Shown here: positions 5,112-61,190 of the stretch, piece by piece
Numbering within the stretch: the first letter of the stretch is position 1
Layout of the letters: the number at the start of each line of letters is the position of its first letter
Assembly: GCA_976551045.1 (NCBI GenBank)
Contig: CDPCPM010000180.1
Coordinates: 33,356,001-33,420,000, forward strand
Length of the DNA stretch: 64,000 bases
From: Glaucostegus cemiculus
Lineage: Eukaryota
Direction of reading: 5' to 3'
Program-made: the position numbers and the translations under genes
Notes under the pieces: model-generated
Told to the model about the DNA's origin: nothing
Database searches by the model: none
Seen by the model: the letters and a program-made list of their open reading frames with translations, nothing else

Positions 5112-5266
5112 CAGTTTTACTTACAGTGTGCTGTATGCAGAAAAAGAGGAAGACATCAAATCCTGAAAACAATTTAAGTTATTGGAACAATGCAATCACT
5201 ATGGATTATTTCAATAGACACGCTGTGGAACTTCCAAGAGAAATCCAGTCACTTGAAACATCAGAG
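5112..5266 (+). CDS. TMEM108: TMEM108-family gene, penultimate coding exon (end of TM helix and cytoplasmic tail)
   Basis: Translation [51 protein letters not shown] closely matches the recalled TMEM108 tail. Acceptor ttctctcttgacag at 5110-5111, donor GAG|gtaatt. Upstream exons lie outside the window. Confidence 0.92.
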
Positions 5267-5309
5267 GTAATTTTTTTAAAAATAAGTTGAAATCGCGTAA
5301 GCTTACATG

Positions 5310-6028
5310 GTGGTTATTCACTTACAGGATGTGTGAGTGTCACTCTCAAGGCCAGTATTTGCTGCCCAAAATTAATTGTTTGGAGAAGGTGGAGCTGGGC
5401 CAGCTCTTAGAACTGCTGCAGTCCTTCTGGTGAAGACGCTGATGGGGAGGACATCCAGGATTTAGACCCAGTGATGGTGAAGGACCGACAATATATTTCC
5501 AAGATGGTGTGAAACTTGAAGGGGAACCTGCAGGCCTTCCTCATGCCTGCTGCCCCTGTCCTTCTCGGTGGTGGAGGCCAATGGTTTAGGAGGTGCTGTT
5601 GGAGTAGACAAGTAACTGCAGTGCATTTTGTAAACAGTACACACCACATGGACAGTGTGTCCATGGTTGAGGGAGGAAATCTTTTCAGGGTGGTGGAAGG
5701 TGTGCGAATCAAGTGGTCTGCTTTGTCCTGGGTGGTGTCAGCCTTCTTCAGAGCCGGACCCAGGCTCATCAGGGATCACGTTCCTGACTTGTGCCTTGTA
5801 GATGGTGGAAAGACCTTCAGGGTGTCACAAGGCAAGTCACTTGCTACAGGATATCCAGTCTCTGACCTGCTCTCGTAGCTGTGGTATTTAAATGGTGACA
5901 TGCATCACGTTGGCTCTGGGAGATTCGGTGATGCCAAAATCATTGAATGTCAGCTATAGGTGGTTTGACCTGCTGTTGGAATTGTTATTGTCTGGCACTT
6001 AAACTGGTACAAATATTACTTGCCACTT
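5310..6028 (-). mobile_element. Old LINE fragment (L2/CR1 group), continuing at 10030-10520
   Basis: Homologous to 16860-17070, 28200-28365 and 29300-31080; split by the CR1 at 6029. Confidence 0.55.
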
Positions 6029-58519: not shown

Positions 58520-59000
58520 ACACTGAGTTCTCCAATTTCGGGTAAATTGCCCCCCCAATCCCATCCCTTTTCTCTGTCCTCCTGATCTACCCAGTTTCTC
58601 CTACACCCACCCGGCATCCATCACCCTGTTCTTTCTCTTCCTCCGCCCACTCCATCTGCCCATCACCCACAGCCTCCCCCTACTGTTCCCATCTGCCCTC
58701 CCCACCTCCCTTATTTGATTCCACCTTCCTTTCCTATCAGTGTCTTCCATCTGTAGCCCTTTGTCACCTCCACCTATCACTTCCATCTTCCCTCCTCCAC
58801 CTGCCCATCACCTCTCCTCACCTGGATCCAACTATCGCCTGCCAGCTATTGCTCCACTCCTTCCCCTCACCTCTTTATATCAGCTAGCTCCCATCTATCT
58901 TTCAGTCCAGATGAAGGGTCTCAACCTGAAACATTGACTGTCCATTTCCCTCCACAGATGTGTCCTGACTCACTCAGTTCCTCCAGCTTCTTGTTTGTTA
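58520..59000 (+). mobile_element. Penelope-derived element end with hammerhead-like motif
   Basis: Pyrimidine tract, then CAGTC-CAGATGA-AGGGTCTCAACCT-GAAACATT-GACTG (58903-58940). Confidence 0.65.
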
Positions 59001-60049
59001 CTCTGTGACCATAGTGTTTACAATCACAGCTTATTCAGTTTTCCATATGATAGCGCATTTGTTCCCTTACTCATAACTTACCAATCAAGAATTGTTTTCT
59101 TCCTCTGAATTTTGAACACGTTGATCTATTCAGATCATACTGCCTTATTACACATATATTAAAGCCACTTTTTTTGTACAATTGTAGCATATACTTTATT
59201 GGCTAGAAATTAATATTGCACAACCTTGTGAGCTACACTGGTGAATTTTGTGTGCAAGTTGCACAGTTACAATAAACTCATGATACTTATGCAGCCAGCA
59301 AGACTGCACCCAACTTTTCCACATTCAAAACAATAGAACATGCAGGATATTTAGTGGACAGAGTGCACACAGACAACATCTATCAGAGTCTAATGCATCA
59401 GCATCACCAGTGAAATTACATCACGTTTGTCTGATTAAAGATTTTACCTCACTGGTTAAACTTCCTCCTTATTGTAGCATAATTGCTTCTGCATTTTGTT
59501 TCTAATCTAACAACATTTTCTCTCCCCCCCCCCCATGTGATCTATAAAATGCTCCTAATGAAGTACCATCTCCTTTCTTATTCCCAATAGATTCTGTTTT
59601 AACATTGCTAAATTGGCTTGATTTTCCGGTTCTATCTTTCTTGATAACCAAAGATTTCCTGCTTCTAGCTTTGCTCAAGCTCAGACTAATGCATCTCTTA
59701 ATATTATCCACGATATTACGATTGAAATATAACTGCAGCGTGAACCTTAATAAGTACAAAGTGAACACAGCACAGAAATTATTAAATACATGTAAATGAG
59801 CGATGTTGAGCCTGATGTGATTTGAGAATCTGCCTTTCCATTGGTTAATTATCAGAATCTGTTAGAATAATATCAATATTTTTCAGATAAACGCAGCATC
59901 AGCGTAATAATCTAACTACGATTCCCTTGCAGATATCTGAAAATGGCTAAAATTGATCCCAGGCAAGTGTAGATGTCTCTGTTGACGAAAAGGCTGGCCT
60001 TGCTCGCTGTGTAGACGACTGTCAAGACCTTTCGCTGAGTTTAAGACGG

Positions 60050-61190
60050 GGCCAGTCCTTGTAAGTTGCATGTGGTCAGCCTCTTGAAAAAGGGTGGGGA
60101 AATGAACCGGCGGCGCTGACCAGGGTGCTGAAAGCGATCTTCGAGCCGCATCGACCCGCTGTGCAAAGTGCGTCCAGCCACACGGGTGTCAGAGACGGCC
60201 AATATGTTAAAATGCAACATCTCCCAGCTGTTGCATAAGTTGATCGAAACATATATAAAACAAATGCAATGCTCAGGTGCAGGAGGCAGCCCATTCATTG
60301 GTAATTTTATGAATGAAGGTGCATTTTGGGCGGGAAGTGTCACCTTGCAAACCGATGCAGCCTGCGGGATGTGCACCGCTGATTTCGCAGGGACGGCGTG
60401 GGGCGCGGATTGCGGAGTCCCCCTCCCGGTGCCCCTTACCTGCTCGGAGCCCTGGAAGCAGATCCTGCAGGTGGGGGTGATACCCCCGTTGCGGCAGCTG
60501 CCGTTGCTGCTGCACACCGACTCGGCGTCGTTGGCGGCCGTGCCCGGTTGCTCGCGGGCCCGCTCCTCCTCCCGGTCCAGCCCGCCGAGCTCCCTCGCAT
60601 CCCCGCCGCCCGCTCCCTCCTTCTCTTTCTCCTCCGCCTCCTCCTGCTCGGGGCCGGCCGCCCGCGACCCTCCGTCGAGAGCGCCCCCGTCCGGGCTCGG
60701 GTTCGGGCTCCGGGCGGCGGACGGCGCTGCCGGCGGCGGCCCGGTGCCGCTTCTCTGCTCCCGCTGTTGCTGCAGTTGGAGCGGCAGTCGCTGGCTCATG
60801 GCGTCGGGGGCGGCGGCGGGGACCCCGGGGCCTTAGCGGGGGGGGGGGGGAATAGGTTAGTCAGAGGCGCGAGCAGGAGGAAGGCGGGGCCCGGGGCTCC
60901 GCTCTCCCTCACGGAGAGCCGGCGGCTGCGGCGGTTTGAGCGGACGGTTTCGCCTCGCCCGGAAACCCCCGGGTTCAGATCATCACAGCCGCGGCGCGCG
61001 CGAAGGGGCCGCGTCACACTGGCGCCTCGCGCTCTGGAACCCGCCGCCCGGGGCTCGAGCGGCGATTCAGCGCGAGCCCGGCCACCATTGTTTCGTCACA
61101 AGCGGGGTGGGCGGGCGGGGGGAGACTGGGCTCGCGAGACCCGCCGCACGCGGGGCCGCTTCAGCCCCGACTCGCTAATCGCCCCCTTAA
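60050..61190 (-). promoter_or_regulatory. CpG island and promoter of the MARCHF11-like gene
   Basis: Very GC- and CpG-rich against a CpG-depleted background; GC boxes (gggcgggcggg near 61110) and CGTCA half-sites near 61013 and 61095. Confidence 0.85.
60440..60799 (-). CDS. MARCHF11: MARCHF11-like RING-CH E3 ligase, exon 1
   Basis: gacgccATG start context; low-complexity N-terminus ending CRICFQGSEQ; donor CAG|gtaagg; 120 codons. Confidence 0.88.

Follow-up and report, generated by a model that had tools for sequence, protein, structure and literature searches.

Ohnologs that survive in some vertebrate lineages and not in others have been cataloged for cartilaginous fishes by Marletaz 2023, which gives 68 cases of differential retention, 19 of them kept only in chondrichthyans (PMC10115646). 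For the MARCHF4/9/11 family of RING-CH proteins, the table in Lamb 2021 places MARCHF4 with HOXD13, MARCHF9 with HOXC13, and MARCHF11 with HOXA13, leaving the HOXB13 column empty (PMC8040251), and mouse ASB1 has been described as a substrate-recognition subunit, enriched in the testis and acting together with ELOB (PMC11743861). Here we analyze 64,000 nucleotides of the ray Glaucostegus cemiculus (contig CDPCPM010000180.1, positions 33,356,001 to 33,420,000), hereafter the window, in which the 3' end of TMEM108, an ASB1-like gene, and a MARCHF11-like gene stand side by side. The reading that we favor as probable is that TMEM108 and the MARCHF11-like gene are likely orthologs on what is likely the HoxA chromosome, parted in bony vertebrates by intrachromosomal rearrangement, and that the gene of ASB1 type is likely a further ASB1 copy of ancient date, possibly a remnant of the first vertebrate genome duplication.

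An earlier note, made from the sequence alone, had placed the three genes next to each other within 56 kb, and this proved correct. All three are present, with their domains and intact frames, and the limits given in the note fall on real boundaries, since the second-last coding exon of TMEM108 begins at position 5112 and the MARCH start codon is at 60799. The host genes span 55.7 kb, TMEM108 with its last two exons on the plus strand and the ASB1-like (three coding exons) and MARCHF11-like (four exons) genes on the minus strand, and all three frames are open. GT-AG borders are found at 6/6 of the introns that separate the nine exons listed here with their accompanying signals.

5112..5266, plus strand: second-last coding exon of TMEM108, with the final part of the membrane segment and the cytoplasmic tail (Pfam PF15759, E 1e-33)
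14916..15032, plus strand: last coding exon of TMEM108, with TGA stop (Pfam PF15759, E 6e-15)
15201, 15326, and 15332, plus strand: AATAAA-type signals of TMEM108 (signal scan)
18545..18678, minus strand: last exon of the ASB1-like gene, SOCS box and stop (Pfam SOCS_box, E 5e-14; 29/44 residues identical to Callorhinchus XP_007899900.1)
21500..21686, minus strand: middle coding exon of the ASB1-like gene (38/62 residues identical to the Callorhinchus protein; AG and GT ends)
25657..26328, minus strand: large ankyrin-repeat exon of the ASB1-like gene (Pfam Ank, E 1e-28; 114/212 residues identical to Callorhinchus, gap-free)
36487..36812, minus strand: exon 4 of the MARCHF11-like gene, cytoplasmic tail and stop (74-92% identical to chondrichthyan MARCHF11-like and 55-65% to tetrapod MARCHF11 among the matches listed)
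38728..38920, minus strand: exon 3 of the MARCHF11-like gene, two membrane segments (100% identical to Pristis XP_051872907.1 by tblastn)
56681..56836, minus strand: exon 2 of the MARCHF11-like gene, most of the RING-CH finger (Pfam RINGv, E 3e-11)
60440..60799, minus strand: exon 1 of the MARCHF11-like gene, start codon, low-complexity N terminus, and first RING-CH cysteines (108/118 aligned residues identical to Pristis)
60001..61500: CpG island spanning the first exon and promoter of the MARCHF11-like gene (GC 0.56-0.76, CpG observed/expected 0.78-1.0), the sole one in the window

TMEM108 is the most straightforward of the three. Among the matches listed (120 of 559 proteins), the nearest carry the plain NCBI symbol tmem108. 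The second-last exon is 98-100% covered and 100% identical in tmem108 of Hemitrygon, Pristis, and Mobula, and the last 89 residues are identical to those of Pristis tmem108 (XP_051872618.1), 84-91% identical to those of four sharks, and 81-84% identical to those of 14/14 bony vertebrates (coelacanth and 13 tetrapods). In the skate expression table a single, unsuffixed "Tmem108" appears, and repeated names there carry suffixes, as in Asb12-1 or March3-2 (PMC10115646); from this, and from the matches listed, we infer a single copy. The PF15759 match, the name, and the single copy make it likely that TMEM108 here is a true ortholog, and no sign of paralogy was seen among the matches listed. The earlier note had suggested that the whole block may be a duplicated paralogon segment; TMEM108 does not behave accordingly, given its symbol, its 81-84% identity to coelacanth and tetrapods, and the unsuffixed skate name. 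In a TMEM108 tree computed without the Pristiophorus protein (a 187-aa fragment) and without the window's own two exons, the stem measures 0.82 to the coelacanth node. The window takes in no more than the gene's 3' end, as the first 410 residues gave no match there by tblastn; an assembly gap of 149 N is found at window positions 3440-3588, upstream of the first TMEM108 exon seen. The neighborhood differs from that in a lizard and probably in a frog. Gene models in Phrynocephalus (P0248) and Leptobrachium (P0220) fuse TMEM108 with BFSP2, so that the two genes adjoin in the lizard and probably in the frog, whereas the 3' neighbor here is the ASB1-like gene and no BFSP2 exon was found in the window by tblastn.

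The MARCHF11-like gene encodes a predicted protein of 344 aa with a RING-CH finger and two membrane segments, spread over four coding exons; in all of these, and in its likely HoxA paralogon slot, it resembles MARCHF11 of the MARCHF4/9/11 family. Its core of 224 residues is identical to that of Pristis pectinata and its exon 1 is 91.5% identical, and identity to tetrapod MARCHF11 is 74-78% over 223 residues. Taken with the TMEM108 end, the Pristis comparison indicates a ray closely related to sawfishes, though probably not P. pectinata itself. Among the matches listed (120 of 288, with no bony-fish MARCHF11 in their number), those with a family name are called MARCHF11 or MARCHF11-like and the others bear a generic ligase name, and each of 21 chondrichthyan species shows one MARCHF11-type locus. 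The NCBI name in Callorhinchus is MARCHF11, without the "-like." The S. torazame protein labeled "MARCHF9-like isoform X2" was considered as a separate gene and rejected, as its accession is consecutive with those of MARCHF11-like X1 and X3 on the same contig and it is the same gene. An Atlas search with the MARCH core returned generic names only, and a Protein Data Bank (PDB) search returned four distant RING-CH entries, with no MARCHF4/9/11 name among the rows listed. The 3' neighbors here are the ASB1-like gene and TMEM108 and not FBXL7, which we take to adjoin human MARCHF11; the 5' flank extends past the end of the window. From the sequence and from the indirect chromosome evidence given below, we hold with good confidence that the gene is the ortholog of MARCHF11.

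Several observations weigh against this assignment. The suffix "-like" stands in the protein names of all 20 elasmobranch species, and a more divergent second MARCHF11 could hide beyond the 120 of 288 matches listed. The stem of the MARCH tree is also long: in 11 matched species, the ratio of between-group to within-group distance is 3.7 for the core, 4.8 for exons 2-3, and 3.4 for exon 4, against 2.4 for TMEM108. An unrooted tree of 34 rows (without Hypanus and C. punctatum, and without a MARCHF4/9 outgroup) puts 0.40 changes per column between the chondrichthyan and tetrapod groups, and 20 chondrichthyan and 14 tetrapod rows are separated by 11 fixed differences over 225 columns. The stem, the fixed differences, and the names would suit a history in which TMEM108 is an ortholog and the MARCHF11-like gene is a same-chromosome paralog from an early local duplication, with chondrichthyans keeping this copy and bony vertebrates the other; chondrichthyans may then keep a further MARCHF11 copy at ZNF622. 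The block may indeed lie far from ZNF622, as skate Retreg1-1 is at 26 Mb and a 3q22 gene at 3.9 Mb. We consider such a duplication unlikely, however, since one locus per species was seen in the 21 species among the matches listed, the Callorhinchus protein is named MARCHF11, and the TMEM108 stem is long as well, so that long stems do not require paralogy; a faster stem and a same-chromosome paralog would both fit the long MARCH stem. The earlier note had itself allowed that the two genes might be sole copies brought together by simple rearrangement. This is probably the case for TMEM108 and also for MARCHF11, where it is judged from an unrooted tree and the matches listed.

To place the block on a chromosome, we relied on runs of skate gene identifiers and on contig sizes, not on coordinates of the three genes themselves. 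Skate Tmem108 (LE27304) is next to Hoxa2-2 (LE27276), in a run with Hoxa9 (LE26542; Leri_2C, 83.94 Mb); Znf622 (LE26804), Cpne4 (LE26556), Nphp3-1, and Ankh belong to the same identifier run, and Twist2-1 (LE26503) is on Leri_2C (PMC10115646). HoxB-named skate genes mostly fall at LE249xx-253xx, a range anchored on Leri_27C by LE24913 (PMC10115646). The coordinates of Leri_2C include March6 at 3.31 Mb and Pik3r4-2 at 3.88 Mb, about 0.6 Mb apart, as well as Retreg1-1 at 26.16 Mb, and no row for March11, Fbxl7, Bfsp2, Cdv3, or Topbp1 is present in the part of the skate supplement available (PMC10115646). The contig that holds the skate MARCHF11-like gene measures 139.7 Mb. The human counterparts of March6 and Pik3r4 are presumably at 5p15 and 3q22, respectively, and RETREG1 is, we assume, the human neighbor of ZNF622. 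Only 19/40 skate chromosomes exceed 40 Mb (PMC10115646), so the skate MARCHF11-like gene is not on Leri_27C if the numbering follows size.

Comparison with other vertebrates points the same way. Chicken chromosome 2 carries HOXA13 at 32.7 Mb, CPNE4 at 41.9 Mb, and MARCHF11 at 75.8 Mb, and Xenopus chromosome 6 carries the three together (PMC8040251); skate LER2 is homologous to GGA2, and linkage group B is represented in the skate by LER2 as its 1-alpha copy and LER7 as its 2-alpha copy (PMC10115646). By this indirect route, the MARCHF11-like gene likely lies on the homolog of chicken 2, in the HoxA paralogon slot. Since Lamb's table puts MARCHF11 with HOXA13, the slot occupied by a gene of the HoxA chromosome is that of MARCHF11 and not the empty one.

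The earlier note had raised a different chromosome, suggesting that the block in its entirety may be a duplicated segment, perhaps a HoxB-linked one, with a fourth copy of the MARCHF4/9/11 family and a second TMEM108. In its favor are the empty HoxB column in Lamb's table (PMC8040251), the long MARCH stem, and the dispersal of the human genes over three chromosomes. MARCHF11 is on human chromosome 5, and TMEM108 and ASB1 are presumably on chromosomes separate from it and from each other. Set against these are the 139.7-Mb skate contig, compared with a HoxB chromosome numbered 27 of 40, the large contigs of sharks, skates, and sawfish (116-328 Mb), the NCBI symbol tmem108, and the position of the unsuffixed skate Tmem108 within the HoxA identifier run. 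The HoxB-linked fourth-copy idea is thus largely refuted, and we regard it as extremely improbable; the identifier runs, the contig sizes, and Lamb's table indicate, indirectly, that the Hox cluster of this chromosome is likely HoxA, where the slot is already held by MARCHF11.

The HoxA placement has its own weak sides. The chromosome evidence is indirect, skate gene identifiers are shuffled within a chromosome, and in the red stingray, where HoxA is on chromosome 20 and HoxB and HoxC are on chromosome 18 (10.1101/2025.06.08.657570), the 72.9-Mb contig was matched to neither. A term search of the accessible text of PMC11979771, PMC10620051, PMC9605692, PMC8302630, and PMC7677710 did not reveal which chromosome number carries HoxA in the species of interest. 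As a separate observation on the published chromosome schemes, SI Table 3 of the skate paper pairs HoxA LER2 with LER40 (equal to chicken 33) and HoxD LER7 with LER27 (PMC10115646), and the columns of Lamb's Table S1 run HoxD, HoxC, HoxB, HoxA (PMC8040251). If those columns pair A with B and C with D, the two papers differ on the sisters of the second duplication.

The association of the genes appears to be old. In 7/7 elasmobranchs for which both sizes are available (Hemitrygon, Hypanus, Mobula, Pristis, Heptranchias, Carcharodon, and Cetorhinus), tmem108 and the MARCHF11-like gene are on contigs of equal size, and in the elephant shark, Callorhinchus milii, the ASB1-like protein XP_007899900 and MARCHF11 XP_007899923 come from one contig of 125,603,275 bases, 23 accessions apart. 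Accessions of tmem108 and the MARCHF11-like gene are 4 apart in Hemitrygon, 6-7 in Hypanus, and hundreds to thousands apart in the other five, so that accession distance, small in 2/7 elasmobranchs, is a weak measure of adjacency. Because of the colocation in elasmobranchs and in Callorhinchus, the arrangement likely arose before chimaeras diverged from the shark and ray lineage. In bony vertebrates, TMEM108 and MARCHF11 share a contig in a caecilian and three turtles and are apart in three lizards. Rearrangement would explain the adjacency seen here, as chicken 2 holds both regions and Leri_2C holds genes of both 5p15 and 3q22; a rearrangement within the HoxA chromosome would have separated TMEM108 from MARCHF11 in bony vertebrates. 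The contigs of the MARCHF11-like gene and tmem108 are also smaller in some rays. They measure 71-74 Mb in Hemitrygon, Hypanus, and Mobula, whereas sawfish, skates, and sharks have contigs of 116-328 Mb, a difference that suggests that the chromosome has split in stingrays and devil rays.

The ASB1-like gene is the part of the block in which an extra paralog is most plausible. Ankyrin repeats and a C-terminal SOCS box are both present by Pfam, which identifies it as a member of the ASB family. The large exon has its first ATG at 26328 and a likely start at 26292, which gives 318 aa, the same as in Callorhinchus; the two proteins are identical at 181/318 residues (56.9%; 54%, 61%, and 66% by exon) with no gaps, the gene shares a contig with MARCHF11 in Callorhinchus, and no structural difference was seen between the two. 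None of 2,000 base shuffles of the 224-codon exon stayed open. Conservation across the chimaera-ray split implies selection on the gene over most of that divergence, and the sequences show that the duplication behind it is older than the holocephalan-elasmobranch split. A single exon of 636-672 bases carries every ankyrin repeat, and the first intron is apparently at the same place in Callorhinchus, where other gene models diverge at this position. At window 26330-26400 (minus strand), a pair of potential splice acceptors lies a short way upstream of the start, and the first ATG is immediately preceded by an in-frame stop, which suggests a noncoding first exon somewhere in 26400-36000; neither this interval nor the vicinity of the ASB1-like gene contains a CpG island. 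An AATAAA-type signal is at 18491. A second Callorhinchus model, XP_007891217.1, was considered as another ASB1-like gene and set aside as assembly redundancy, its C-terminal part reading as XP_007899900.1. A fragment resembling a long interspersed nuclear element (LINE) lies in the final intron of the gene, some 220 bases away from the exon with the SOCS box.

The origin of this gene is best approached through the position of canonical ASB1. Skate Asb1 (LE07603) is near Traf3ip1 (LE07844; Leri_7C, 47.05 Mb) and Hoxd10-2 (LE07847), and both it and Asb12-1 (LE19721) fall outside the Tmem108 run, as judged by identifier (PMC10115646). The presence of skate Asb1 in the identifier block of the HoxD chromosome, together with Traf3ip1, makes the gene in the window likely to be an ASB1 paralog. 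TRAF3IP1 is, we take it, the human neighbor of ASB1, and no ASB1-type gene is known at human 3q22 or 5p15. Canonical ASB1 thus lies, on the indirect evidence of an identifier run, elsewhere on a paralogous chromosome in the skate, and cartilaginous fishes in general likely carry canonical ASB1 on HoxD and this second gene on HoxA, as a first-duplication pair would. This would mean that the earlier note's idea of ohnologs kept here and lost in mammals likely holds for the ASB1-like gene and probably fails for TMEM108 and MARCHF11. A fuller proposal, which we put forward tentatively and at somewhat less than even chances, is that the gene is an undescribed first-duplication ohnolog of ASB1, with ASB1-like and MARCHF11 on HoxA mirroring ASB1 and MARCHF4 on HoxD; it would be a cryptic gene that chimaeras and this ray have kept intact, that elasmobranch annotations lack, and that mammals have lost, in a block that keeps the ancestral jawed-vertebrate order.

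Some results run counter to an ASB1 ohnolog. The identifier LE07603 is below the lowest anchored identifier of Leri_7C. Atlas features rank two ASB12-like clusters level with ASB1 (0.99 each), though by structure the Atlas lists an ASB1 cluster and not ASB12, and a protein search with the ASB exon returned six proteins from 88 candidates, three of Callorhinchus and three weak and unnamed, with none from an elasmobranch; ordinary ASB1 was missed too. A second view, to which the Atlas tie lends support, is that the gene is extra but no ohnolog, being either a transposed or partly retrocopied duplicate that arose on the stem of the chondrichthyans or a branch of the ASB12 lineage. Mammalian ASB1 has introns in the ankyrin region and ASB12 has one large exon, so that the single ankyrin exon here looks more like ASB12 or a partly processed copy; evolution has also been fast, at 57% identity to Callorhinchus compared with 89% for the MARCH core, and the exon search found no bony-vertebrate relative. 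That blank means little, however, because the same search missed ordinary ASB1, and NCBI and UniRef call the Callorhinchus gene ASB1-like. Its neighbor on the likely HoxA chromosome also has an ohnolog, MARCHF4, that shares the HoxD chromosome with the neighborhood of ASB1, as in gar, where LG12 holds HDAC4 at 19.9 Mb and MARCHF4 at 23.4 Mb. On balance, an origin of this second kind seems improbable.

The lack of elasmobranch matches also raises the question of whether the gene is still alive there. A close Pristis ASB1-like protein of 123-392 aa should have surfaced in the protein search, and Pristis proteins identical to exons of the neighboring genes are present in the same collection. When three readings of this ASB exon were looked up exactly, 0/3 were in the collection; a search of protein representatives listed 150 matches that are all ankyrin-repeat proteins of at least 781 aa, and PDB searches returned generic ankyrin proteins and ASB7/8/9, with no ASB1 or ASB12 name among the rows listed (60 of 321 in one search). 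The gene is either unannotated in, or lost from, many sharks and rays. It could even be dying or dead in elasmobranchs, this ray holding merely a frame that is not yet broken, as the missing proteins, the failed look-ups, and the lack of a nearby CpG island might indicate. Against such decay stand 318 codons in three exons without a stop or gap relative to Callorhinchus, canonical splice sites, a full-length match to the SOCS box, and the AATAAA-type signal at 18491, and we judge it quite unlikely. A second copy of ASB1 of ancient origin remains our preferred explanation.

By analogy with their families, the products would act in different ways. TMEM108 is predicted to be a single-pass membrane protein, and the MARCHF11-like protein would be a two-pass membrane RING-CH ubiquitin ligase that ubiquitinates membrane proteins. 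The ASB1-like protein shares its ankyrin repeats and C-terminal SOCS box with the ASB1 and ASB12 substrate receptors; its ankyrin repeats would bind substrate and its SOCS box would recruit Elongin B/C-Cullin 5. Nothing suggests joint action, and the three genes are neighbors by history.

The remainder of the window is vertebrate-like sequence rich in LINE-like open reading frame (ORF) fragments, with 35-50% GC apart from the one CpG island. Self-repeats make up 12% of the window and overlap 0/9 exons. No further host gene was seen between the three by motif scans, the list of 100-aa ORFs, and tblastn with the BFSP2 half of the lizard gene model, although short exons of an unrelated gene would escape these. 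Long, decayed reverse-transcriptase/endonuclease ORF fragments at window 7138-9900, 22607-23455, and 24982-25332, on the minus strand with one on the plus, are presumably CR1-type LINEs. Repeated fragments of a second LINE-like family, to which the one in the last ASB intron belongs, are found at 18899-19583, 28369-29046, 31104-32013, 43386-44517, and 62495-62815.

A literature search, with most subscription papers outside its reach, found no publication on this block or on a chondrichthyan ASB1 paralog. The ASB1-like gene is already annotated by NCBI for Callorhinchus, and it may be among the 68 cases of Marletaz 2023 (PMC10115646). If it is an ohnolog, it resembles the chondrichthyan-only ohnologs of that study in being kept in cartilaginous fishes and lost in mammals.

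Overall, the block consists of real genes, for the most part likely ordinary orthologs in a chondrichthyan gene order, with one likely extra ASB1 paralog. The weightier claim of a surviving HoxB-linked segment with a fourth MARCH gene and a second TMEM108 is not borne out, and no model of vertebrate genome evolution is changed. What the block does mark is a breakpoint at which the cartilaginous and the bony vertebrate gene orders have been rearranged relative to each other, one among many, as the skate paper counts 1,801 (PMC10115646). If the ASB1-like gene is a true ohnolog, it would be a gene apparently missed by elasmobranch annotations, and it would enlarge by one both the Hox paralogon and the recognized duplicates retained by cartilaginous fishes but lost from mammals.

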